DNA of 64,000 nt, from assembly GCA_965222605.1 (NCBI GenBank), contig OZ244960.1, positions 4,480,001 to 4,544,000 of the forward strand, written 5' to 3'. The translations under genes were made by a program, and so were the position numbers. Below the pieces are notes generated by a model. It was not told the origin of the DNA and did no database searches. It was given only the letters and a program-made list of their open reading frames with translations. The stretch comes from Candidatus Latescibacterota bacterium. GTDB taxonomy: Bacteria > Latescibacterota > UBA2968. The first letter of the stretch is position 1. The number at the start of each line of letters is the position of its first letter. Positions 7,195 through 52,411 of this stretch are shown in pieces.

Positions 7195-8095
7195 ACCTTT
7201 GGTGCTAGTGTTATATTCTGAAGTGTGCGATGGCAAGGTTAATGAACCCATCTTCATCGGGTTTAAAGCCCTGCCATTGTACCAAGATATTGAAGGCGGC
7301 CATGGTAAAAGCCAATCGCATTGCAAAATAGCTCCAGACCCGATGCATGACTTTCTTAAAATGCCACACGAGCGTCATCATAGATAAGATGGTTTCAACC
7401 ACCATGCGCTCATTCCAAGTGCCACGCGGACAGATTTTTAAGTTTTCTGGGTTGTCTTGCGCTTTTTGAAAGCCGACATCGGCAAAGACGACCATGTCTG
7501 ATTGCACCTGCTTGATGAGATGGTGGAAGGTGGTATCGTGAACATTAGCTGTCTGACAGTCCCAATCCACGATGAGACCCCATTGATTGATCAACAGACA
7601 GAGCTTGCCACCGACAATCCAGCGATAATTCGATTTGCCTTTCTTCCCGATCTGAGCAGGACTTCTGCCTTCTCGGATCGGATGAATCAACTCAATGCCA
7701 TAGCTATCAATGATGCCCAACACGCTCTTTTCGGCTAAAAATCGGCTTGTGGCGTGTTGATGCCTTAAAAAGAGGCGAAACAAGCGCGTGCGATGAGGTA
7801 AGTTAGGAAACAGGTGCTGCCAATCGTTTATCAGCCAATCATAATAGGCGCGATTGCCCACCCCTTTAATCGCAAAAAGCAAGGCCAACGTGATGACTTC
7901 GCTGGGATAGAGCTTGGCTTGAGGATGTTTCTCAAGGTCTTGCGTTTGATCATCTACCCGACAGAACAGGTCAATGATCAGCATTTCAGTCGTCATGAAG
8001 TTTACCTCCCTGCTGTGAATGAATGAGGTGCTAACTCATTCAGCATAGGTAAACTTCTGGCGACTTACAACTTCTTATCTACTAGCACCAAAGGT
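7195..8095 (-). mobile_element. IS982-family insertion sequence (901 bp)
   Basis: Perfect 15-bp terminal inverted repeats ACCTTTGGTGCTAGT (7195-7209 / 8081-8095). 5-bp duplication TATTA at 7190-7194 and 8096-8100. Single DDE transposase. Confidence 0.85.
7211..7996 (-). CDS. IS982-like DDE transposase
   Basis: IIDLFCRVDD, LYPSEVITL, IIDS, GKLCLL, ANVHD, FADVGF and ERMVVET. RBS GGGAGG. Confidence 0.8.
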   Translation of the reverse strand: MTTEMLIIDLFCRVDDQTQDLEKHPQAKLYPSEVITLALLFAIKGVGNRAYYDWLINDWQHLFPNLPHRTRLFRLFLRHQHATSRFLAEKSVLGIIDSYGIELIHPIREGRSPAQIGKKGKSNYRWIVGGKLCLLINQWGLIVDWDCQTANVHDTTFHHLIKQVQSDMVVFADVGFQKAQDNPENLKICPRGTWNERMVVETILSMMTLVWHFKKVMHRVWSYFAMRLAFTMAAFNILVQWQGFKPDEDGFINLAIAHFRI

Positions 8096-18252: not shown

Positions 18253-19536
18253 TTAAACCTGAAGTTCTGCAGGGTCGTTGGTGCGCGCGCCTTCGGGGGC
18301 AGGGACTGAGCCTGCGAGCAATGGATCGCGAGTTGTTTCCATCCAGGCTTGGAGGCGATGGCGCAGGTCGTTCAGCGCGTCCTGATGGTTGGGATCAGAG
18401 GCGAGATTGTTGGTCTCATGTGGGTCAAAAATGAGATCATAGAGTTGTTCCTGGGGTTGATTTTTCTGCCGCCAGCCCTGGGTGAGAAAGTAGGATTTGC
18501 TGGGGCTGCCGTCGCAGTTGATGTCGCCGGGACGCGATGTGGGATACCAGTGGCGGATATATTTCCATTTTTTTGTGCGAATGGCGCGTTGCGGGTCGTA
18601 ATAGCTGTGGTAGTTGATTTCTGCGAAAATTTCATCGCGGATTTCATCTGTTTCATCGCGGATAAGTGGTAGCACGGATTTGCCTTGCAGCCAGTGGGGG
18701 TGGTCTATGCCGATCACGTCGCACAAGGTGGGGAAGAGGTCAATTTGAGAGACCATGCCATCGGTGACTTTGCCGCCTGAAAAACCCGGTCCGCGCATGA
18801 TGAGCAAAACGCCGATGCCGTGATCGGTGAGGTTGCATTTCATCATGGGGAATGCGATGCCGTGATCGGTGGTGCTGATGACGATGGTGTTTTCGGCAAG
18901 TCCGACACGATCTATGGCGTTGAGGACGCGCCCGACTTCGGTATCGAGAATGCGAACGCAGGTTTTGTAAGCAGCGGTATCGTATCGGGTTTCGGGGGTG
19001 TCGGGCAAAGGCGCGGGGGGTATGCAATAGCGCGGGTCGTCTTCTGGCTCTGGTTCGGGAAAGCTGCGATGGGTGACGGTATATCCGACGTCGAGAAAAA
19101 AGGGCTTGTCGTGAGATCGGTTGAGAAATGCGATGGCCGCATCTGAGGTCGCCCGTTGATTTTTAGCTGTGTCGAATATTTCGTCATAACCGATTTCCGA
19201 GGGATCGGCTGCGGGGGGGCGACCGACGTGCTGAAAACCCGATAGAGCGGTTGTGTAACCCGCTTTTTTGAGCGTATGAACGAGGTGATGGCTGTAATCG
19301 TTGAGGCGAAAACCGCGGTGTGCCAACCCCAGCATGCCGCAACTATGGGGCCATTGTCCGGTCAGGAGTGCGGCTCGGCTCGGCGAGCAGGTCGGGTTGG
19401 CGCAAAATGCCTGGCGGAATAGAATGCCCTGTTCGGCGAGGCGCTGAAAATTCGGGGTTGGCATGGCATGCCCAAAGGGCTGAATGTAGCGACCCGTGTC
19501 GTGAGAATGGATGTAGAGGATATTTGGATGGGACAT
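18253..19536 (-). CDS. Cys-type sulfatase (sulfamidase-like)
   Basis: PNILYIHSHD, CSPSRAALLTG, TTDHG and EQLYDL..DPHE. Confidence 0.9.
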   Translation of the reverse strand: MSHPNILYIHSHDTGRYIQPFGHAMPTPNFQRLAEQGILFRQAFCANPTCSPSRAALLTGQWPHSCGMLGLAHRGFRLNDYSHHLVHTLKKAGYTTALSGFQHVGRPPAADPSEIGYDEIFDTAKNQRATSDAAIAFLNRSHDKPFFLDVGYTVTHRSFPEPEPEDDPRYCIPPAPLPDTPETRYDTAAYKTCVRILDTEVGRVLNAIDRVGLAENTIVISTTDHGIAFPMMKCNLTDHGIGVLLIMRGPGFSGGKVTDGMVSQIDLFPTLCDVIGIDHPHWLQGKSVLPLIRDETDEIRDEIFAEINYHSYYDPQRAIRTKKWKYIRHWYPTSRPGDINCDGSPSKSYFLTQGWRQKNQPQEQLYDLIFDPHETNNLASDPNHQDALNDLRHRLQAWMETTRDPLLAGSVPAPEGARTNDPAELQV

Positions 19537-41360: not shown

Positions 41361-42065
41361 ATGAGCATCTTTCAACGCCTCTTTAATGTGGGCAAGTCCG
41401 AAGTCAATGCGGCCATTGACAAATTTGAAGACCCAATAAAAATGACCGAACAGGGTATTCGCGATCTAAAACAAGACCTCAATGGGGCGATGACCAGCCT
41501 GGCAGAGGTCAAGGGGCAGGCCATTCGATTGCGAAAGCAGGCTGAAGACAACAAAAAGGCATCTGCAGATTGGGAGAGAAAGGCCATGATTTTGATCCAA
41601 AAGGCCCAAAGCGGCGATCTGGATGCTGAGGAAGCCGATCGGTTGGCAACGGAAGCTCTCAGCCGCAAATCAGAAGCCGACAGCCGCATCTCTCAGTTTG
41701 AACAGGATGCTGAGATGCAGGAAAATATGGCCAATAACCTTCAAAGTCAGGTGGAGAAACTCAAATCTACCATTGCAACACACGAAAATGAACTCATTTC
41801 ACTGCGTGCGCGTGCAAAAACAGCCTCTGCGACCAAAAAGATCAACAAGCAGCTCGCCAAAGTCGATTCGTCTGGTACGATCGCCATGCTCGAGCGCATG
41901 AAAGAACGGGTTGAAGAAGACGAATCGCTCTCGCAGGCTTATGGTGAAATGGCCAATGAATCCAAGAGCGTTGATGAGGAAATTGACGCGGCACTGAGTA
42001 CTTCATCGAGTGGCACAGATCAACGCCTTGCTGAACTCAAAGCAAAGATGGGGATGAATTCGTAA
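41361..42065 (+). CDS. PspA/IM30 family protein
   Basis: MSIFQRL, EDPIKMTEQGIRDL, LRARAKTA, ERMKERV and RLAELKAKM. Confidence 0.92.
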   Translation: MSIFQRLFNVGKSEVNAAIDKFEDPIKMTEQGIRDLKQDLNGAMTSLAEVKGQAIRLRKQAEDNKKASADWERKAMILIQKAQSGDLDAEEADRLATEALSRKSEADSRISQFEQDAEMQENMANNLQSQVEKLKSTIATHENELISLRARAKTASATKKINKQLAKVDSSGTIAMLERMKERVEEDESLSQAYGEMANESKSVDEEIDAALSTSSSGTDQRLAELKAKMGMNS

Positions 42066-42152
42066 GTCGTGGATTGGCTCTGGGTGTGCCTGGGAATGAG
42101 AGACTCGCGCACCCGGATGAGTTTTTTACTCGCTGCGTTGCAGGGAGAGAAA

Positions 42153-42692
42153 ATGAATTGGAATCTTTTTAAAAAAAAGAAAGAAGAACCCGAAGCTCTC
42201 GATCCCCTTAGTATTACGCTGTCCGATCTCAAACTGGGTTATGTTCTCGACTACGATCTCAAAACATGGCAGGTCACGGCGCAGCATTATTACGATTACG
42301 AAGGGGATCGCGTGGATGAATGGGAACTTACCTGCGGCGATGACCTGGCATATCTCGAGCGGGCAGAAGACGATAATATCGCCTGGGCATTGACGCGCAA
42401 AATTCCCCTTTCCGATATTGAGAGCAATATCCGCGCGCATATGAGCAACTACGATGATCCCCCAGATGAAGTCACTTGCAATGGTATTATTTACTACGGG
42501 GAATCATCAGCCGTTGGATCTTATTACAAAGATGGCGAGGGAGAGGGGCAGGAGTTTATCATCTGGAATTATCTCGACGAGTCGGCAAAGCACACTTTGT
42601 CTCTCGAGCAATGGGAAGAAAATGCTTATGATGCCGCAGTGGGTGAGGTCGTCGAAGAATATCAATTTAGCAATATCCTGCCAGTCGCGTAA
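42153..42692 (+). CDS. DUF4178/YjfK-like acidic protein
   Basis: LDYDLKTWQV, EWEL, PPDEV, LSLEQW and EYQFSNILP, plus the gene context. Confidence 0.65.
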   Translation: MNWNLFKKKKEEPEALDPLSITLSDLKLGYVLDYDLKTWQVTAQHYYDYEGDRVDEWELTCGDDLAYLERAEDDNIAWALTRKIPLSDIESNIRAHMSNYDDPPDEVTCNGIIYYGESSAVGSYYKDGEGEGQEFIIWNYLDESAKHTLSLEQWEENAYDAAVGEVVEEYQFSNILPVA

Positions 42693-42697
42693 TATCT

Positions 42698-44233
42698 CTA
42701 TTCAACTCCCCATTCTGATTTTCTATAGTATTGATCTACTGTCGGTTCCATTTCTGTGCTGACATCAATTGCGTGTTTTTCGTCAAACATGCCCTTCCAG
42801 AAGTGCAACATTCCCCGCATCGCTTCCGCATTCAAAAATTGTGTTTCAATATTCGCAAAGGTGAGTTGCCGCATTCGGCGACCCAGATCCTCTTTGCGCA
42901 TTCCCTGTGTTTTCATCCCCAGTACCCATCCCCAATCGCCCATCGTTGGTATATAGGTGTGATAGGGTATTGTCGAAAAGCCGGCGTCTTCCATCGTGCG
43001 CTCAATGCACAGAAAAGCAAGACGCGCGTTAAGAGGACTCGATGCCTGGGTTACCAGCACGCCATCGGGTGTTAGGTGACGCGCACACAAGCGATAAAAT
43101 TCCCGTGAATACAATCTGGCGAGGTCTGGCCCTTTGGGGTCGGGCAGGTCGATGATGATGATATTGAATAACGCATCTGAATGCGCCAAAAACGCGCCGG
43201 CATCGCCGATTACTACATTTACACGCGGGTCGTCCAGTGCCCGCGCGTTCGCTTCTACAAAAATTGGATATGTGCGCGCCAGGTCGATTATCGCTTTATC
43301 TAAATCTACCAGCGTAATCGCTTTCACATCTGCGTATTTCACGACTTCGCGCACAGCCAGTCCATCCCCTCCGCCTAAGATGAGCACGTTGTTCCGCGAT
43401 CCAGATAGTTGCAGGGCCGGATGCACCAGCGATTCGTGATAGCGTTCTTCGTCATAGGTGCTGAATTGTACGTTGCCATTTAAGTGCAGCCAGTGGTGGC
43501 CTTTCCATTCTGTTATGACAATGCGTTGATAAGCGGTCTGTTCCTGATAGACTACGCGGTCGCGATACCGACTTTGCTCGCCCCATATCACAATGGGACG
43601 GATATAAATTCCCAGTACCAGAAGGCCTGCGCCCATAATCCAAAATGCCGCCAACAATCGAATGGGCCGCGCCAATAAGTGTCGATATTGCCACAGTAAT
43701 ACCGATGCCACGACAAAGTTAATCGCGGCCAACGCCAGCGGTGTGTAGGTCAGGCCCAATTCTGGCAATAAAAAAAAGGCGAACAATAGTCCGCCGATCA
43801 ATGCGCCAAAATAGTCTTTTTCCATTACTGAGGCGATATTGGTACGCAGATCCTGGTACGCTTCGTTCATGCGAGCGACCAGCGGAATTTCCATGCCGAT
43901 TAGCACGCCGATTGCAAAAGCATACACATAGATGAAAATACCTGCCGACAGCACGAGTGTCGATCCAAAATACGCCGCAACCGCACAGGTGGCACACAGA
44001 GCCGAGAGATAAAATTCGATTGCGATAAAGCGATCCAGCAACCGGTCTGTCAATAAGCGGCTCCATCGACTGCCCAGGCCCATGGCAAATAACATCAGCG
44101 ACATGAGCATTGCCCACTGCAATGTCGTATTGCCCAATAGATAGCTCGCCAGCGTTGATAGCGTAAATTCCGCTACAATGCCCGAACACCCCGTGGCGAA
44201 TATACAGGCTTTTAAGAGATAACTTTGACGCAT
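42698..44233 (-). CDS. speE: Membrane-anchored polyamine aminopropyltransferase (spermidine synthase with N-terminal TM domain)
   Basis: About 7 TM helices, then QTAYQRI, QFSTYDEERYHESLVHP, LILGGGDGL, IIIDLPDP and LYSREFY. Confidence 0.9.
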   Translation of the reverse strand: MRQSYLLKACIFATGCSGIVAEFTLSTLASYLLGNTTLQWAMLMSLMLFAMGLGSRWSRLLTDRLLDRFIAIEFYLSALCATCAVAAYFGSTLVLSAGIFIYVYAFAIGVLIGMEIPLVARMNEAYQDLRTNIASVMEKDYFGALIGGLLFAFFLLPELGLTYTPLALAAINFVVASVLLWQYRHLLARPIRLLAAFWIMGAGLLVLGIYIRPIVIWGEQSRYRDRVVYQEQTAYQRIVITEWKGHHWLHLNGNVQFSTYDEERYHESLVHPALQLSGSRNNVLILGGGDGLAVREVVKYADVKAITLVDLDKAIIDLARTYPIFVEANARALDDPRVNVVIGDAGAFLAHSDALFNIIIIDLPDPKGPDLARLYSREFYRLCARHLTPDGVLVTQASSPLNARLAFLCIERTMEDAGFSTIPYHTYIPTMGDWGWVLGMKTQGMRKEDLGRRMRQLTFANIETQFLNAEAMRGMLHFWKGMFDEKHAIDVSTEMEPTVDQYYRKSEWGVE

Positions 44234-44310: not shown

Positions 44311-45156
44311 TCACAAACTCCACACAATCAGGAACGACGCGCCGATATAAGACGTGGCCTCAATGAAGCCCGCGGCCAAATTGGGGTGTTCTTGATTGGC
44401 GATTTCATCGGTGAGTTTTTGTCCGGGCAAGAGGATCACATCGGAGATGAACCGGGCGATGGGTAGCAGTATTAATCCCGCGATTACTTCGATTGCAAAA
44501 TCCTGTAGATTTACGGTCCATGAAATAAAATCACCCGCCGATGCGTGAAATACAATGACGCCAATGCCGACCAATGCGCCAGCAAAAGCGACGCCAGCGG
44601 CGACATTGTCTTTTTCAATTTCGTCGTGAATGCTATACGGGGTAATCCATTCGTACACCAGCCCGGCCAGTATCAGGGCTATTTGACCCGATGCCCAGAA
44701 AATCACTGTTGTCACAATCCCGCCAATTTCACCCGATACCGCACCAAAGATCACCAATCCCGTTGCAATATACGACGCAGCGACCACAACACCCGTGCCC
44801 ACGTTCTGATCGTCAATCAATTCATCCCGAACTTTGAATCCATGTAAGATCACCCAGTCATTGACCAGACGGGACAAATTCAGCAAGACAATCGCCAGCA
44901 GTCCGTATATGCCAATGTCGATCAAATCGTTTTCCAATCCCTGAGATGGTCCCGATAAGGTGCCACCAATGGCCATTATCAATCCAAAATAATATCCCGC
45001 CATGGCCACACCCAGTGCAGCGTTGTCTTTTTCGACCAGTTCATCCCGCACGCTGTAACTCCGTGTCGTCAAATCCTTGATCAATTTGCCGAGCCAGAAT
45101 AATATAAACGCACTAATGAGATAAATACCCGTTGCGATCAAATCCTGTAAAATCAT
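44311..45156 (-). CDS. DUF350 membrane protein (tandem repeats)
   Basis: Four repeats of EL/EI..DN.A.G (ELVEKDNAALG, ELIDDQNVGTG, EIEKDNVAAG, EIANQEHPNLAAG). ATG at 45156 overlaps the upstream stop. Confidence 0.82.
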   Translation of the reverse strand: MILQDLIATGIYLISAFILFWLGKLIKDLTTRSYSVRDELVEKDNAALGVAMAGYYFGLIMAIGGTLSGPSQGLENDLIDIGIYGLLAIVLLNLSRLVNDWVILHGFKVRDELIDDQNVGTGVVVAASYIATGLVIFGAVSGEIGGIVTTVIFWASGQIALILAGLVYEWITPYSIHDEIEKDNVAAGVAFAGALVGIGVIVFHASAGDFISWTVNLQDFAIEVIAGLILLPIARFISDVILLPGQKLTDEIANQEHPNLAAGFIEATSYIGASFLIVWSL

Positions 45157-45884
45157 TTTCCAAACCCTCCAAAACTGCGGCTGCCAAATCCAGATCGGCT
45201 GCGACTCGTTGAACGCGAACTGCCAAATCCGCTGCGACTCTGGCTCGTGCGACTTTGCACTTTTTGTGTGAACGATTGTCTCTTTTGGGCTATGGTTGCC
45301 TTGCGTCGCTGGAATGTCGTTGGTTTTTGTTTTTGCGTGACAGACCCCTGCGTGCCATATTCCCGATTGCGCCCATAATACGGGCGTCGATCCTGGCGAT
45401 AAGACCGATAATCGTCGTAATCGTAGCGACTCATGCCGAATCCGCCGCCCCAACCGAGCAAACTTCGCATCATCGCGTATTGGCCGTAAAACTCCCAGAA
45501 CGACGTGCCCCCGCGATTCGTCCATTGTCCGTATTGTGGATTGCCCACATAGTGGTATCCGGGCGGGTGTGGCGTATTGTTTACGCCATCTTGCTCAGAT
45601 TTGGCAACCAGCGCCATTCCCAAAAATGGTTCGTATTTTCGATAGATGGCCTCCGATACTTCTATCCAGTCCGATTGTACCTTTTTTTCGCCCTGTGTAA
45701 TTAAATACCGATGATAATACGCGGTAAAAACAGTGCCTTCTTCACGTATATCATCCAACACAATCATATACGCCGGTGCCGAGGCCAGCGATTTTTGCAT
45801 TTCAACTACGGGATCGCGTTCGCCGCCGCACCCGCACAACAACAGAAGGCCGATCAGAAAGACCGGCAATCGTTCTCGTGTCAT
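45153..45884 (-). CDS. Putative lipoprotein with an Arg/Ser/Gly-rich low-complexity tail
   Basis: Signal peptide ending LCGC, PPGYHYVGNPQYGQW..SFWEFYGQYAM, and tail SRSGFGSSRSTSRSRSGFGSRSFGGFGK. Confidence 0.75.
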   Translation of the reverse strand: MTRERLPVFLIGLLLLCGCGGERDPVVEMQKSLASAPAYMIVLDDIREEGTVFTAYYHRYLITQGEKKVQSDWIEVSEAIYRKYEPFLGMALVAKSEQDGVNNTPHPPGYHYVGNPQYGQWTNRGGTSFWEFYGQYAMMRSLLGWGGGFGMSRYDYDDYRSYRQDRRPYYGRNREYGTQGSVTQKQKPTTFQRRKATIAQKRQSFTQKVQSRTSQSRSGFGSSRSTSRSRSGFGSRSFGGFGK

Positions 45885-45955: not shown

Positions 45956-47419
45956 CTATCTTGGGTCTTCGGGCAATTGTGAGAAGTCAAACTCGTTTAC
46001 AGTATTGATGTCTGGCGCGAATGGAGGGATAGCGTGGGGGATATGGCTGTGCCCACAGCGTGCTATGAGCGCTCGGGCGCGCGCTTGCCGTTCGGCTTGT
46101 TTCAAAATATCATCGGCAGACCAGCGTGCAAAATTTTTTTCGAGGCCCGATTGGATCACGTCTTGATATCGGGGGTTATCGCTCAGGTCACGGCGTTCTT
46201 CGGGGTCTTCTTCGATGTTGAACAATTGGCAGGAGTCATGTTCAGAATAATAGTTCAATTTCCACGGACCCGTGCGGATCATGCACGCGGGTTGGTCGCC
46301 GAGCAAGCCGATGTATTCTGCAAAGACTTCATTGGGCCAGTCCGGTGGCGGGGAACCTGTGAGGAATGGGGCGAAGCTTTTGCCCGAGACATCGGGCATG
46401 GGGTCTGAACCCGCAATATCCAGAGCCGTGGGGCCGACGTCGATGAGGCTGACGATGGCATCTTCTGTGCGGTTTTCGTGAAGATGGCCCGGCCATGAGC
46501 AGATTAAGGGAATGCCGACAGAGCCTTCGTAAAAACTGCTTTTCCACCACATGCCGTGTTCATGGGCCATATCGCCGTGGTCTGAGGTGTAGATGATGAC
46601 GGTATTATCCGCATCGGAAGTAGATTGTACGGTGTCACTGATCTGACCGATGTACCGGTCGAGTTCGGTGGTCAAGCCGTAATAAGCGGCTAATCCGCGG
46701 CGGTTCTGTTCCGGGGTGATGTCGTCAACGCCGCGTCGCTCGCGCCATTTTTTCATGGCTGGATGCAGGGCGTTTAGGTATTCGGGAGATTCGGGTTCGA
46801 GGGGTGGTATCTGCGCCATGTAATACTCGAAGTCTTCTCTGTCGCAGATCAGGGGATTGTGCGGGTTCATGTAACCGACGACGAGGGCATAAGGTCTGTC
46901 GTTGTTTTGCCGATCGGCGATGAATTTGCAGGCTGTTTCGGTGACGGATTTGTCAAAGTGGCGATAGCCGGTTTCGCCATGACCAGATACTTGAACGCCG
47001 TATTTGGTTTGTCCTGTTGTGCGATTGTATCCCGCGCCGAGAATTTCTGCGGATAGCCCACCGCAGTCGGCGTGGATGCGTTTTTCAAAGCCGTGGAATT
47101 GGTCGGGGTTTCTAAAGTGCATGCGACCACATAGCACGGCTTCGTATCCCGCCGCGCCAAATGCATGGGCAAATGTGGGGGTGTCAAAAGACAGGCTGCC
47201 ACTGTTGTCATAAACACCCACGTCGCTGGGGTACTGTGCAGACATAAAGCCCGAGCGCGAAGGCGCGCAGAGGGGATAGGGGCAATACGCATTGCGAAAC
47301 CGGGTTCCGCGACGCGCAAGCGTATCTAAATTTGGCGTTTGCACAATGGGATTTTCCGCACATCCCATTACATGGGGGTTGTGCTGATCGGAGATGATGA
47401 TGATAATGTTAGGAGTCAT
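45956..47419 (-). CDS. Cys-type sulfatase (choline-sulfatase-like)
   Basis: PNIIIIISDQH, CAPSRSGFMS, GRMHF and YTSDHGD..KSSFYE. Confidence 0.9.
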   Translation of the reverse strand: MTPNIIIIISDQHNPHVMGCAENPIVQTPNLDTLARRGTRFRNAYCPYPLCAPSRSGFMSAQYPSDVGVYDNSGSLSFDTPTFAHAFGAAGYEAVLCGRMHFRNPDQFHGFEKRIHADCGGLSAEILGAGYNRTTGQTKYGVQVSGHGETGYRHFDKSVTETACKFIADRQNNDRPYALVVGYMNPHNPLICDREDFEYYMAQIPPLEPESPEYLNALHPAMKKWRERRGVDDITPEQNRRGLAAYYGLTTELDRYIGQISDTVQSTSDADNTVIIYTSDHGDMAHEHGMWWKSSFYEGSVGIPLICSWPGHLHENRTEDAIVSLIDVGPTALDIAGSDPMPDVSGKSFAPFLTGSPPPDWPNEVFAEYIGLLGDQPACMIRTGPWKLNYYSEHDSCQLFNIEEDPEERRDLSDNPRYQDVIQSGLEKNFARWSADDILKQAERQARARALIARCGHSHIPHAIPPFAPDINTVNEFDFSQLPEDPR

Positions 47420-47450
47420 AGGTAGAAGTGAGAAGTCTGAAACAACTGGA

Positions 47451-48158
47451 TTATTTTCCGTCATTTCCGTTATACAGTCCCTCTCCGCGTACGAGAAGGC
47501 GTTTGGGGTTGGGGATGTCCATGAGTTCGTCAACGCTGTGATAGCCAACTGTCATGCTCATGCGCGTGTCTTCTGTGTGGTTTTCGCCTGCGCCGTGGAC
47601 GACCATGCTGTCGATTGCGAGCATTCCGCCTGCGGGCATGGGTACGGGGAGTGCCTGGCCCAGAATATCGCTTGCCCAGTCTGCATCGTGAATAGATGTG
47701 GAGACGCCGGGGAAGTGATGCGACCCGGGTACAATGCGGGTACATCCATTTTCAAGGGTGGTTTCTTCGAGGTAAAAGATGATGGTGTAGATGTTGCGCG
47801 TCCACTGCCTGACATCGCGGTGGAGATACGCGCCTTTGTTGTCATTCGCCGTGCGTAAGGTGGCGTGGTTGTGGCGGTTGGTGAGGATTTCGATATTGGG
47901 TCCCAAGAGCGATTCGAGCGGGTCGAGTGTGAATGGATGTGTGACTGCTTCTCGGAAGATCGGCGCGCGATCCATGAGGGCAGAGATACGCACGGCGCGG
48001 CCATCTTTATTGCGTACGATGGGTTCGATTTTGTGGTCAATATCGTCCATGATCGCCGCTTTCAGATTTTCAACCATTTCTTCTGGCAGGGGGTCTGGAA
48101 GGCAGAGAAAACCGTTGTTTCGAAAGAGCTGGATTTGTCGCAAGGTGAGTGAGGGCAT
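47451..48158 (-). CDS. Phytanoyl-CoA dioxygenase (PhyH) family Fe(II)/2OG enzyme, HxD type
   Basis: LHRD, ENGCTRIVPGSH, VHGAGEN and RMSM. Confidence 0.88.
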   Translation of the reverse strand: MPSLTLRQIQLFRNNGFLCLPDPLPEEMVENLKAAIMDDIDHKIEPIVRNKDGRAVRISALMDRAPIFREAVTHPFTLDPLESLLGPNIEILTNRHNHATLRTANDNKGAYLHRDVRQWTRNIYTIIFYLEETTLENGCTRIVPGSHHFPGVSTSIHDADWASDILGQALPVPMPAGGMLAIDSMVVHGAGENHTEDTRMSMTVGYHSVDELMDIPNPKRLLVRGEGLYNGNDGK

Positions 48159-48161
48159 GTC

Positions 48162-48911
48162 CTACTCCTGAATGGGAAGCGCATAGGGATGTGGGTGTCC
48201 TGTATAGACTTTTTCGCCGCGCACGAGAATTTTTTCCGGGTCGTCTTTGATCACATCGTGGGCGTCGTGGGCGCGATAGGCAACCGTCATGCTGCGGCGG
48301 GAATGATCAGAACCATTTGTGTCCGACCCGTGATAACAGCAATCGTTAAAGAGCAGTACCCCGCCGCGCGGCATGGGGATGGGCACTGCGCGGTAATAGT
48401 TGTCGCTGTTGTAAAAATTGTCTCTTTGTTTCTGTGGTCGGCGCGGGTTGAGGAACGGACGGTTGTGGCTGCCGGGCACAATGCGTATACAGCCATTTTC
48501 AATGGTTGATTCTTCGAGGTATATCAAGCCGGTGATCAGCGTGTGGTCATAGGGTTCTTCACCGGCGTGCCAGGGCACGGGATAAGACCCGGATGGGCGC
48601 ACCATGACGTGGTTGTGTTTGTTGGTGAGTACTTCGACGTTTGGACCGATGATGCCTTCGAGGGCATCGAGGATGATGGGGTGAGACACAGCTTCGAAAT
48701 AGACGGAGTCTCTTAAGAAAATTTTTGAAAGGCGGCGAACATTTTCTGGCTTTCGCGCCCCTTTTTCTTCCCAAACAATGGGTTCGCGCATGCCTGAAAT
48801 CTGCCGGGAGGTGACTTCATTTAATTGATCGACCAGGTCGCCAGGCAGGGTCTCGCGGACTTTGTAGAATCCGGTGGTTTTGAAATACCAGAGGTCTTCT
48901 TCTGTGATCAT
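48162..48911 (-). CDS. PhyH family Fe(II)/2OG enzyme with HxG motif (candidate halogenase)
   Basis: WHAG, ENGCIRIVPGSH, YHGSDTN and RRSM. Confidence 0.8.
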   Translation of the reverse strand: MITEEDLWYFKTTGFYKVRETLPGDLVDQLNEVTSRQISGMREPIVWEEKGARKPENVRRLSKIFLRDSVYFEAVSHPIILDALEGIIGPNVEVLTNKHNHVMVRPSGSYPVPWHAGEEPYDHTLITGLIYLEESTIENGCIRIVPGSHNRPFLNPRRPQKQRDNFYNSDNYYRAVPIPMPRGGVLLFNDCCYHGSDTNGSDHSRRSMTVAYRAHDAHDVIKDDPEKILVRGEKVYTGHPHPYALPIQE

Positions 48912-48944: not shown

Positions 48945-50303
48945 TTATCTCGGGTCCATTACCCGCCCGACAAATAGGGTGGTGTTGGTCGCTATGTCTC
49001 GAATGAGGAAGATAAATGGCCGATCGATCGCGACCACAATCGGCGGTGGGGGAACGGATTTTACGCCTACGACCACGGCGGTGGCTGCTGCGGCTTCTGT
49101 ACCTTTCTCATTTACGAGGACGAATGCCTTGTGAAAGGCATCCGAAATGGAGAGGTCTTTTCTTCCATCCATGCCCGAGAAGTCCGCTAATTGCTGATTG
49201 AAGGCATCTGATATTCCCATCTTTTTGAGGGTTGCGCCCAGCTTGAATTGCGCTTCAAACTCGAATGAAGGCATGGTGAGTTCTACTTGCTCGCGATTCA
49301 GGTCTTCCGAAATTTGACTGACGAGTTCGGCGTTTAGCGAATTTTCGAACGGATTAAAATTACCCTTGTCGGGAAGCAGGATGAGCATGGATATTTCACT
49401 GCCGTCGTAGAGCAACTCAACGGCCTGATATCCCGTGCCACTCGCATAGCCAAATAATTCGGTCTGTCGCATCATCGGTACTTTTACGCTGTTGCCGTTT
49501 AGCAAGTGGAAGTCGCCTTCAGCAGTGGCTTTTTCGTCGAAAGTGTAGAGCCACGCCGCGTTGAAGTAGATGGCATTGGTGAGGACTAATCGGGTCAAGT
49601 TGTCGATGGCACCGGAAGGAATCAGGTCTTTGATCTTGTCTTCCGTCTGATGGGCGACCCAGTCATTGATCGCGACTCGCGAGTCTTCTGGCGCCTCCGT
49701 GAAATTTGCTATTTTCATTCCAGCGCCGTAATTCTCAGCCAGTTTGTCCAGGAAGTCCTGCAGGAAGTCAAAGCCCTGCTGCCCCCAGATCGCATTGGCG
49801 ATGTTCAATCGAAACCCCTTACCCTCTGTGCCGCTACTCCCTTCGCCGCGAGAGGCGAGTTGGAGATCGAGGGCGTTGAACGCGGGATGCAACTTGTCCT
49901 GGGACAGGGTGAAGTGTAGTGTGTTCGATATCTGGCGTTCGGTTTCGCCTCTGGCACCGGCATGTGTCATGGCAAGTGCCAGCGAGATGCTGTAGGGCGA
50001 ATAGAAGAGGTTCCCACTTTCTTCCTCGCGCAGTTTCTGATACAGGTCGAAGGCGAAGGCGTTGTTTCCACGGACCAGGTCTGTTAGTTCTGAATCTGTC
50101 GCCAGAGGTACGGTCACCCGCGTCTTTTCTGAGCGCACTTCTTCTGTCTCAGACGGTGTCTCGGTTGGCGGTGATGCCGTGGGCGAGGAGGTCTCCGGTA
50201 ATTTACCGCATCCGAGTAGTGCTGCTGATAGTATTACAGCGGGTAGCAAACGGTTGGCGAAGATGGGAACTACCATTTTATATGGCTTTTGTGTCGTGTC
50301 CAT
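48945..50303 (-). CDS. Serpin (serine protease inhibitor), predicted lipoprotein
   Basis: NNAFAFDLY, NLFYSPYSI, LTNAIYF, hinge EKGTEAAAAT and DRPFIFLI..LFVGRV. Lipobox LLGC; RBS AAGGAGG. Confidence 0.95.
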   Translation of the reverse strand: MDTTQKPYKMVVPIFANRLLPAVILSAALLGCGKLPETSSPTASPPTETPSETEEVRSEKTRVTVPLATDSELTDLVRGNNAFAFDLYQKLREEESGNLFYSPYSISLALAMTHAGARGETERQISNTLHFTLSQDKLHPAFNALDLQLASRGEGSSGTEGKGFRLNIANAIWGQQGFDFLQDFLDKLAENYGAGMKIANFTEAPEDSRVAINDWVAHQTEDKIKDLIPSGAIDNLTRLVLTNAIYFNAAWLYTFDEKATAEGDFHLLNGNSVKVPMMRQTELFGYASGTGYQAVELLYDGSEISMLILLPDKGNFNPFENSLNAELVSQISEDLNREQVELTMPSFEFEAQFKLGATLKKMGISDAFNQQLADFSGMDGRKDLSISDAFHKAFVLVNEKGTEAAAATAVVVGVKSVPPPPIVVAIDRPFIFLIRDIATNTTLFVGRVMDPR

Positions 50304-50575: not shown

Positions 50576-52411
50576 ATGCCCAATGCGCTCCTGGTATATC
50601 CAAAAAATCCAGTGACGTTCTGGAGTTTTGATGAAGCTTTAAAGTTGGTCGGAAAGAAATCGGCTTTTCCGCCTTTGGGGTTGTTGACAATCGCCGGTAT
50701 GATGCCCGATAACTACAGTTTGCGCGTGGTGGATGTAAATGTACATCCATTGACAGATGAAGATCTGGGTTGGGCAGATATTGTGATTACATCGTCGATG
50801 ATTATTCACTGGCATTCTCTCGAAGAGATTATTGCTCAGTGCAATGTCGCAGGTGTGCCCGTGCTCAATGGCGGCCCGCTGCCCACGCAGTATTGCGAAG
50901 ATATTGAGGGAGATGCGATCTTTTATTTGGGCGAGGCCGAAAATGGCTTTATGGATGTGGTCGAGCGATTGGTATCCGAGCCTTACCGTGGGGGGCGAGA
51001 GTATATTGATCGACGAGGTGATTTTCAAAGCCTCACAACAACACCGCTTCCTCGATGGGATCTGGTCAGTTTTGACGATTATACCGTGATGGTGATTCAG
51101 ATTACGCGAGGTTGTCCAGAAAGTTGTACATTTTGCAATATCCCCGCGCTTTACGGCAAGATAACGCGTTTAAAAAATAGCAGCCTCGTGATTCAGGAAT
51201 TGGACGCGCTTTACGATAGAGGCTGGCGCGGTTCGGTTATGGCAGTTGATGATAATATTGTTGGCAACCGCGACGAGATTCGACAAATACTGGAAGAAGA
51301 GGTGGTGCCCTGGCAAAGAGAGCGCGGGTATCCTTTCCAATTATTTACGCAGGCCAGTATTCGCGTAAGTGATGATCTCGCGTTGTTAGAGGCGATGTAC
51401 CTCGCTGGATTTGATAAGATTTTTGCGGGGATTGAATCGCCAGTGGAAGAAAGCCTGAAGTTTATGGGCGCGCAAAAGAATTTGCAGGGCGATACGCCTT
51501 TGCTGGACAAAGTGAAGATTCTGCAAGAATATGGCATGGAAGTTCAGGCCGGTTTTATTATGGGCCTGGATACAGATCCAGATGATATTGCCGATCGCAT
51601 GATTGCGTTTATCAGAGAAGCGGGTATTCCGGTGGCTATGGTGGGGATTTTGGGCGTGCTGCGCGACACGCCCGACTTCAAGCGCTACAAGCGGTTGGGT
51701 CGCCTGCGTGAAGACGTAAAATATACGGGTGATTCGGGTATTTTCAGCCGGGAGTTGAGTTATGTGCCTATCATTGATCCCGACGAACTGCTGGCGCGCC
51801 ATCGCAAGGTTCTCGAAACGCTGAACAGTCCAGAGATTTTCTTTGAACGCTGCCGCACGCATTATGCACATCGCACGCGCAGACCGCTTCCATCAATGCC
51901 AATTGGTTGGACAGAACTCAGGGCGGGATTACGCTCTTTTTGGCATCAAGGTGTGGTCGGGACTTATCGGTGGACGTTCTGGAAATTTATGGCCCATATG
52001 CTCGTTCACCATCCCCGCGAGTTTGGCGATAGCATACGCATGTCCATTCATGGCCGTCACTTGATTCTCACCACGCGCGACGCCCTGCAGGTCGATGAGG
52101 TGAAAACCTTTTTCGATGAAGCGCTGGATCATCTGAAGCGATTTAGCGAGGGATATAAAGAAGTGAGTGTCAGTGATTACGCGAGCAAGTTGATGCACGC
52201 CTTGCACGGGCGGGTTGATCATTTTCAGGACGATTATCGCACTTTGCAACACAATGCCGAGGTGATGTTGAAGGCGGCTCAGGAATACTGCGGATTGATC
52301 CGCGAAGAATTTCGCCACCAGGTTGCAGAACCTCTTGAGCGTTTTCAACAAGAGATCGAAGCAATCCTCGATTCATATCCCACCCAAAGCGATTTGCAAC
52401 CTGTGCGGTGA
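50576..52411 (+). CDS. B12-binding radical SAM protein with DUF4070-like domain and helical C-terminal extension
   Basis: FPPLGLLT, GGP, GEAE, RGCPESCTFC, DDNIVG, GIESP and GFIMGLD. Confidence 0.88.
   Translation: MPNALLVYPKNPVTFWSFDEALKLVGKKSAFPPLGLLTIAGMMPDNYSLRVVDVNVHPLTDEDLGWADIVITSSMIIHWHSLEEIIAQCNVAGVPVLNGGPLPTQYCEDIEGDAIFYLGEAENGFMDVVERLVSEPYRGGREYIDRRGDFQSLTTTPLPRWDLVSFDDYTVMVIQITRGCPESCTFCNIPALYGKITRLKNSSLVIQELDALYDRGWRGSVMAVDDNIVGNRDEIRQILEEEVVPWQRERGYPFQLFTQASIRVSDDLALLEAMYLAGFDKIFAGIESPVEESLKFMGAQKNLQGDTPLLDKVKILQEYGMEVQAGFIMGLDTDPDDIADRMIAFIREAGIPVAMVGILGVLRDTPDFKRYKRLGRLREDVKYTGDSGIFSRELSYVPIIDPDELLARHRKVLETLNSPEIFFERCRTHYAHRTRRPLPSMPIGWTELRAGLRSFWHQGVVGTYRWTFWKFMAHMLVHHPREFGDSIRMSIHGRHLILTTRDALQVDEVKTFFDEALDHLKRFSEGYKEVSVSDYASKLMHALHGRVDHFQDDYRTLQHNAEVMLKAAQEYCGLIREEFRHQVAEPLERFQQEIEAILDSYPTQSDLQPVR

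Follow-up and report, generated by a model that had tools for sequence, protein, structure and literature searches.

A PhyH-family oxygenase of uncultured Latescibacterota with an H-x-G motif and a putative relocated iron-binding carboxylate

Introduction

This report concerns two adjacent minus-strand genes, here called A and B, in a 64,000-nucleotide stretch of DNA (the window) from a Candidatus Latescibacterota bacterium (GenBank assembly GCA_965222605.1, contig OZ244960.1, positions 4,480,001 to 4,544,000 of the forward strand). Both genes encode PhyH-family proteins of the Fe(II)/2-oxoglutarate (2OG) oxygenase type. In B the canonical H-x-D motif is intact, whereas in A a glycine, Gly117, stands where the carboxylate residue is usually found. 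An earlier annotation of this DNA, made from its letters alone (the original prediction), took A to be a free-standing halogenase in which Gly117 opens a site for Cl or Br, with A halogenating and B hydroxylating the same small molecule. We consider it somewhat more probable than not (roughly 0.55) that A is an oxygenase whose carboxylate has been relocated (H-x-G ... D-x3-H) and whose partners are its canonical paralogue B and a B12-binding radical SAM enzyme. The halogenase label is probably wrong.

According to the favoured explanation, the Asp of H-x-D would have been replaced by Gly117, and a new Asp would have arisen at the fourth position ahead of the distal His (D190-x3-H194). The iron would still be bound by two His residues and one carboxylate, in an altered geometry, as reported for the oxygenase HygX. 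There would then be no free coordination site for a halide, and A would be a hydroxylase, or an oxidase with altered oxo geometry, that acts beside B and the divergently encoded B12-radical-SAM enzyme as a conserved module. If the iron site is filled by a relocated carboxylate in this way, A is an oxygenase and the halogenase reading is disfavoured.

Results

A and B are PhyH-family paralogues

Both proteins exceed the Pfam PhyH (PF05721) cut-off of 22 bits, A with 82.4 bits and B with 87 bits, and they are 36% identical to each other over 242 columns (E 1e-49), which bears out their description as close tandem paralogues. The alignment is free of gaps between the proximal His and the YLEE motif, so that Gly117 of A (codon 48561-48563) lies exactly opposite Asp115 of B, as had been claimed. 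HMMER alignments to solved structures likewise placed Gly117 on the HxD Asp of EvdO2, EvdMO1, PAHX, EctD and AviO1. The original prediction was also correct that the distal His and the Arg are kept in both proteins (H194 and R205 in A, H188 and R199 in B). R205 is invariant in 143 sequences and is presumably the residue that binds the C5-carboxylate of 2OG.

The AlphaFold2 (AF2) model of A had a mean predicted local distance difference test score (pLDDT) of 94.5 and a predicted template modelling score (pTM) of 0.91, and that of B a pLDDT of 88.9. The best Foldseek match to the model of A was PAHX (2a1x; E 8.9e-15, TM-score 0.73), which a profile of A also matched at E 6.7e-17; A thus has the double-stranded beta-helix fold of solved PhyH members. 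The listed fold neighbours, PAHX, EvdO1, SnoN, proline hydroxylase H11, GriE, EctD, MysH and ThoJ, are hydroxylases, epimerases and cyclases, and no halogenase was found among these listed matches. A search of the ESM Atlas returned only generic PhyH and B12-radical-SAM clusters.

The Gly residue is fixed in family A and arose once

A word-indexed protein search with A returned 121 proteins at E <= 1e-5, and the best 120 of these 121, which extended down to 46% identity, were used for alignment. W-H-x-G-E was present in all 121 rows (the 120 relatives and A), and B was the sole H-R-D row. The same pattern was observed in genomic loci, with WHxGE in 58 of 58 full-length A rows and H-R-D in 28 of 28 B rows; our crude gene calls recovered a full-length A open reading frame (ORF) in 57 of 80 loci, the rest being partial or masked by overlapping ORFs. 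The original prediction had allowed that close homologues might carry HxD, and they do not. A sequencing error or a pseudogene as the source of Gly117 is ruled out by the 121 proteins and 58 genomic copies. In the 13 best genomic matches, which come from metagenome-assembled genomes labelled Candidatus Latescibacterota, A is 92-94% identical and the gene order is the same.

An exhaustive search of 50%-identity representatives gave 2051 matches at E <= 0.001. Among the best 150 of these 2051, which we inspected, H-x-G was restricted to relatives of A, and all others were H-x-D. We built a tree of 71 rows (23 HxG and 48 HxD) in which the motif columns, 2 of 255, were kept. The HxG rows occupied one side of a single branch (Shimodaira-Hasegawa-like approximate likelihood ratio test 99), so that one change on the tree suffices, and the nearest HxD outgroup read WHRDA. 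Fixation of the Gly across the family and its origin on a single branch indicate that the Asp-to-Gly switch is old and under selection. The residues H115, H194, D190 and E118 were invariant in the family-A alignment (A1), and the invariance of H115, H194 and R205 indicates that A is under selection as a metal/2OG enzyme.

The main HxG clade reads WH[SATRY]GE. A small sister subclade (P0122, P0268, P0269 and P0270) reads WHRGA and has no acid in the loop after the His, with the D-x3-H motif and the Arg pair kept; it offers a natural control for the role of E118.

These features have a counterpart in the halogenase reading. It would explain why 121 of 121 proteins have a Gly in precisely the place of the carboxylate; the accepted motif by which such enzymes are mined is H-x-G/A, and the WHRGA subclade lacks an acid in the loop. 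The origin of the clade from a single Asp-to-Gly switch in HxD ancestors resembles what has been described for other halogenase lineages, and many relatives come from marine or sponge-associated bins. A broader version of this idea treats family A as a new, independent radical-halogenase lineage of the PhyH superfamily, spread over uncultured Latescibacterota, Gemmatimonadota, Poribacteria and Planctomycetota, which would act with a hydroxylase paralogue and a B12-radical-SAM enzyme outside nonribosomal peptide synthetase (NRPS) and polyketide synthase (PKS) clusters. In that case D190 and E118 would serve in the second sphere or in substrate binding.

An Asp four residues before the distal His accompanies the Gly

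We tabulated the residue at position 190 in 299 aligned relatives of A, setting aside 9 rows without both His residues. Where residue 117 was Gly (116 rows), Asp was present at position 190 in 115, including the four WHRGA rows that lack E118; where residue 117 was Asp (173 rows), an acid was present at position 190 in only 3. The single row with Gln at 117 (P0279, H-R-Q) also had Asp at 190. In the closest HxD outgroups the residue at 190 was Gly, Cys or Ser.

A review of orthoester biosynthesis describes HygX, a PhyH-like oxidative cyclase, as "H-X-G ... E-X3-H" with a relocated acidic residue. In HygX, a non-acidic residue at +2 of the proximal His is combined with an acidic one at -4 of its distal counterpart. 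The same combination was found in P0279 and in the PhyH proteins of cluster 9 (L-H-G-S ... E-x3-H), which are encoded beside A in nine loci. The best solved relative of cluster 9 was HygX itself (4xc9, E 1.5e-10), and in the HMMER alignment the cluster 9 stretch F-T-E-A-V-T-H-G-T fell on N-E-A-L-M-H-G-T of HygX, Glu on Glu. When family A was compared with cluster 9 by hhalign (probability 95%), its stretch F-N-D-C-C-Y-H-G-S fell on the corresponding cluster 9 stretch, with D190 on the Glu, and H115-A-G117 fell on L-H-G-S. A search of the PDB with residues 170-216 of A alone did not have HygX among its matches; the link runs through the cluster 9 family.

In the AF2 model of A, residues 190-193 form a four-residue turn between strands 185-189 and 194-196, and B is modelled with the same succession of strand, turn and strand. 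Judging from these models, a residue at -4 could lie near the distal His. Metal ligation by D190, as the aligned sequences suggest it, would settle one point that the original prediction had raised, namely that another carboxylate might complete the triad. One probably does, by way of D190, and the Glu after HAG on which suspicion had fallen does not appear to be the residue concerned.

Several observations weigh against a relocated carboxylate. The HxG row P0272 is an exception, with Asn at 190 and Asp at 189. A single clade dominates the covariation, and any residue specific to that clade would covary with G117. A is distant from HygX (4xc9, E 0.072 for the single sequence, 1.2e-05 for the profile), and its Asp side chain has one methylene group fewer than the Glu found in HygX. 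Finally, many relatives come from marine, halide-rich habitats, where halogenation is not implausible ecologically.

It is conceivable, if unlikely, that A is an oxygenase with D190 off the iron, having either a two-His site or E118 swung in as the carboxylate. A two-His site has a precedent in AspH, an active hydroxylase with H-x-G ... H that is described as having two protein ligands only; an Asp-to-Gly variant of FIH is reported to retain some activity. E118 is invariant in the main clade, at a position where HxD relatives have V, I or A, and the loop 116-125 is predicted to be without regular secondary structure in the model of A. On the other hand, D190 follows G117 more closely than E118 does. 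E118 is absent from the four WHRGA clusters, in which G117, D190, H194 and the Arg pair all remain, and thus it cannot be a clade-wide solution. By the usual alternation at the end of a strand, position +3 would also be expected to point away from the metal. If D190 is the ligand, E118 may form part of the wall of the substrate pocket or take up the space vacated by the Asp-to-Gly change.

The same residues argue against a halogenase. The original prediction had passed from HxG to halogenation, and this step is undermined by the Asp that precedes the distal His by four residues in 115 of 116 HxG rows, at the position of the relocated ligand of HygX, compared with 3 of 173 HxD rows, and by HygX and AspH, both of them HxG enzymes that are not halogenases (AspH being a hydroxylase). 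The Glu beside the Gly is invariant in the main clade, and a negative charge near the halide site should be unfavourable. Against the model for SyrB2/CmaB-type chlorinating enzymes (TIGR01762), A scored 32.2 bits and B 34 bits, far below the cut-off of 226.3, and no WelO5, BesD or AdaV chain was among the PDB sequence matches of A at E up to 1. There is also no biosynthetic cluster around A. We therefore regard a halogenase pairing of A with B as quite unlikely, and give the same low credence to a new halogenase lineage.

A, B and a B12-radical-SAM gene form a conserved unit

We compared the neighbourhoods of 80 loci related to A. B lies directly after A in 34 of the 73 loci with at least 1.2 kb of downstream sequence, and elsewhere in 3 loci. 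Of the 72 loci with 2.5 kb or more of upstream sequence, 34 have an orthologue of the B12-radical-SAM gene. B and this orthologue coincide in 34 loci; 3 loci have B without it, and 1 locus has it without B. The radical SAM gene, which carries DUF4070, is divergently paired with A-B in L001-L013, L025, L028, L030, L032-L034, L039 and others, and the module is conserved in Latescibacterota and Gemmatimonadota. This co-occurrence identifies the radical SAM gene, A and B as the conserved unit and the sulfatase downstream of B as a lineage-specific addition. The original prediction, from which the radical SAM gene was absent, had grouped A and B with the sulfatase as a three-gene block. That block did not prove general: a sulfatase orthologue (at least 60% identity) follows A in just 19 of the 80 loci, in 16 of which A is at least 83% identical (the others are L025, L070 and L073). 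A and B may act in one pathway, and the substrate of the module is most likely a small polar metabolite.

Elsewhere, other genes take the place of the sulfatase. An orthologue of nitrile hydratase alpha lies downstream of A in 15 loci, where the beta, alpha and accessory genes are found at about 8.5-10.5 kb of each locus, replacing the sulfatase after A-B; representatives of all three exceed their NCBIfam cut-offs. These loci are L028, L030, L032, L033, L039, L043, L050, L054, L056, L059, L064, L066, L068, L078 and L080, and genes for GFO/IDH/MocA, aldo-keto reductase and MFS proteins come next in most of them. In loci with B and neither an orthologous sulfatase nor nitrile hydratase, the genes that follow include, for example, those for a xylose-isomerase-like protein in L015, a GFO/IDH/MocA oxidoreductase in L034 and an M20 peptidase in L017. 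Over all 80 loci, the contexts of A are catabolic or sugar-like, with GFO/IDH/MocA, aldo-keto reductase, MFS, amidohydrolase, glycoside hydrolase and sulfatase genes.

We considered whether the module could be a maturase, either of the sulfatase (formylglycine) or of nitrile hydratase (oxidised Cys), and found this not to be supported. Among the 37 loci with B, several (L015, L018, L027, L034 and L060) have neither gene downstream, L017 has only distant sulfatase-like matches of 24-25% identity, and the radical SAM protein is not of the anSME type.

Could A instead be a non-catalytic or regulatory subunit that forms a heteromer with the canonical enzyme B? The two genes are 3 nt apart and, as noted, adjoin in nearly half of the loci with enough downstream sequence. 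TlxJ and TlxI, paralogous dioxygenases of the same fold that are chains A and B of PDB 7vbq, reportedly form a heterodimer. Set against this are the invariance of the proximal His, distal His and Arg in A and the occurrence of A without B in 43 of 80 loci, 19 of which have another PhyH gene and 24 none within the flanks. We find a heteromer of this kind very unlikely.

The HygX-like PhyH genes of cluster 9 were found just downstream of A at L035:5952-6761, L048:7779-8588, L049:7764-8588, L052:7778-8587 and L053:7763-8587, with further members at L055:9006-9818, L058:9005-9814, L065:7763-8587 and L067:3199-4011.

No carrier-protein, NRPS or PKS domain was detected in 89 neighbour proteins from the related loci, which comprised 70 cluster representatives (of 110 selected from the 80 loci) and 19 ORFs from seven loci. 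The same domains were absent from the 52 window proteins scanned, a set that did not include the ORFs at 41361-42065 and 42069-42692; to this extent the earlier statement that the window holds no NRPS/PKS carrier protein stands. Housekeeping and transport genes predominate among the 52.

Gene layout and other genes of the window

Coordinates of the features are given in Table 1. The genes on the minus strand run in the order serpin, A, B, sulfatase, a 243-amino-acid protein without a family, a DUF350 membrane protein and a spermidine-synthase-like protein. The gaps of 3 nt between A and B and 31 nt between B and the sulfatase are as originally given, and this spacing suggests that the three genes may be co-transcribed. 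A scan for promoters and terminators found no excess of sites over shuffled sequences (6 versus 5.0 and 7 versus 7.0, respectively).

Table 1. Features of the window discussed in the text (window coordinates).
Feature	Position	Strand	Remarks
Gene A, PhyH-family Fe(II)/2OG oxygenase	48162-48911	-	ORF, 249 amino acids; W114-H115-A-G117-E118 ... D190-C-C-Y-H194 ... R205-R206
A codons H115-A116-G117	48561-48569	-	H115 48567-48569; G117 48561-48563 (GGT), Gly at the usual carboxylate position
A codon E118	48558-48560	-	Glu directly after Gly117; hydrophobic (V/I/A) in HxD relatives
A codons D190-H194	48330-48344	-	D190 48342-48344; H194 48330-48332; D-x3-H
A codons R205-R206	48294-48299	-	R205, Arg invariant across the wider family
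Gene B, canonical PhyH oxygenase	47451-48158	-	ORF, 235 amino acids
B catalytic residues	H113-R-D115 47814-47822; H188 47595-47597; R199 47562-47564	-	Codon positions
Cys-type sulfatase	45956-47419	-	487 amino acids from Met at 47419; open frame reaches 47548
Sulfatase codon Cys51	47267-47269	-	Formylglycine motif C-A-P-S-R (CxPxR)
B12-binding radical SAM protein with DUF4070	50576-52411	+	611 amino acids; divergent from A-B
Serpin	48945-50303	-	Between radical SAM gene and A; context only, outside the conserved module
PspA	41361-42065	+	Cluster directly downstream of the sulfatase
DUF4178-like	42069-42692	+	Same cluster
Spermidine-synthase-like	42698-44233	-	Same cluster
DUF350	44311-45525	-	Same cluster
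243-amino-acid protein	45153-45884	-	Same cluster
Golgi phosphoprotein 3 homologue (GPP34)	17556-18182	+	151 bits, full length
Second sulfatase	18253-19536	-	Pfam 116.7 bits; unlinked to A-B
Transposase (DDE, IS66, IS4/5 types) and Fic-domain genes	7211-7996; 11869-13338; 13379-14698; 16712-17512		Transposase-rich stretch
G+C dip	14001-16000		0.435

The sulfatase matches Pfam Sulfatase (PF00884), the family of type I sulfatases, with 158 bits. Its nearest NCBIfam model is choline-sulfatase BetC (TIGR03417), for which it scored 326.6 bits, below the cut-off of 433.45, and it thus appears to be a relative of choline sulfatase outside that family. Inspection of its N-terminus by eye revealed no hydrophobic signal, and the protein looks cytoplasmic.

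The radical SAM protein belongs to class B (B12-binding) and has Pfam B12-binding, Radical_SAM and DUF4070 domains and a CxxxCxxC motif that reads GCPESCTFC. No NCBIfam family reached its cut-off (best 53.7 bits versus 600). Enzymes of the B12-radical-SAM type are typically oxygen-sensitive, and it is worth noting that one is fixed here beside two dioxygenases that require oxygen. A literature search on DUF4070, made by the domain name only, returned hopanoid methylases and the DUF classification and nothing on the radical SAM-A-B module; nor did a search on Latescibacteria with PhyH and sulfatase find anything on it.

The serpin (Pfam Serpin, 400.6 bits) has a lipoprotein-like N-terminus (LLGCG) and separates the radical SAM gene from A only in the 13 closest loci, L001-L013. 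The cluster of PspA, DUF4178, membrane spermidine-synthase-like and DUF350 genes is syntenic in close relatives. The ORFs at 44311-45525 and 45153-45884 overlap, so the DUF350 gene probably starts later than its ORF. The 243-amino-acid protein has a lipoprotein-like start, a tail rich in Ser, Arg and Gly, and no Pfam match.

Farther away, the window contains a homologue of Golgi phosphoprotein 3, in a bacterial genome, and a transposase-rich stretch with a Fic-domain gene and a dip in G+C content, which is probably a mobile-element hotspot.

Discussion

If relocation of the carboxylate is true of family A, the HygX-type iron site would have a second lineage in nature, far larger than the first, with more than 120 sequence clusters and with Asp in place of Glu. 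A practical rule for genome mining would follow, namely that a match to H-x-G/A should not be called a halogenase before position -4 of the distal His has been checked. Present pipelines lean on the short H-x-G/A motif and admit false positives; a preprint on a curated halogenase-mining pipeline warns that HXA/G searches yield them. If, on the other hand, A were a halogenase, a new and abundant family of carrier-independent C-H halogenases would have been found. The trio of a B12-radical-SAM enzyme and two 2OG oxygenases is in itself a defined target for biochemistry in phyla that have no cultured representatives.

Among known systems, HygX, the orthoester-forming Fe/2OG oxygenase of hygromycin B (PDB 4XC9, 4XCA, 4XCB and 4ZPI), provides the closest parallel in the arrangement of the putative ligands. 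It shares the PhyH-like fold superfamily with A. In both, a Gly follows the proximal His where a carboxylate residue would normally be, and an acid precedes the distal His by exactly four residues, the local pattern being LL-x-N-[DE]-x3-H-G-[ST]. The two differ in that the acid is Glu in HygX and Asp in A, and in that the gap left by the Gly is filled by Lys137 in HygX, according to the review, whereas A has an invariant Glu after the Gly. Moreover, 4xc9 ranks behind many canonical enzymes among the relatives of A, which is not close kin of either HygX or AviO1, and there is no aminoglycoside cluster around A.

The Fe(II)/2OG halogenases of the SyrB2/CmaB, WelO5, BesD and AdaV types have H-x-G/A, the distal His and the Arg in common with A. 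Features of A that speak for a difference are its conserved Asp at -4, the Glu next to Gly117 and the lack of a carrier protein nearby. SyrB2 belongs to the same broad superfamily and is a weak match to A (E 0.0056 with the single sequence, 1.5e-05 with the profile). Human aspartyl/asparaginyl beta-hydroxylase, AspH, is a natural enzyme with H-x-G ... H whose reaction is hydroxylation and not halogenation; in contrast to A, it is a member of an unrelated subfamily, has a protein as its substrate and reportedly lacks a relocated carboxylate. The canonical PhyH enzymes, such as PAHX (2A1X), EctD, GriE and proline hydroxylase H11, share the PGSH, H-G-S and Arg motifs with A, and are set apart from it by H-x-D and a non-acidic residue at position -4.

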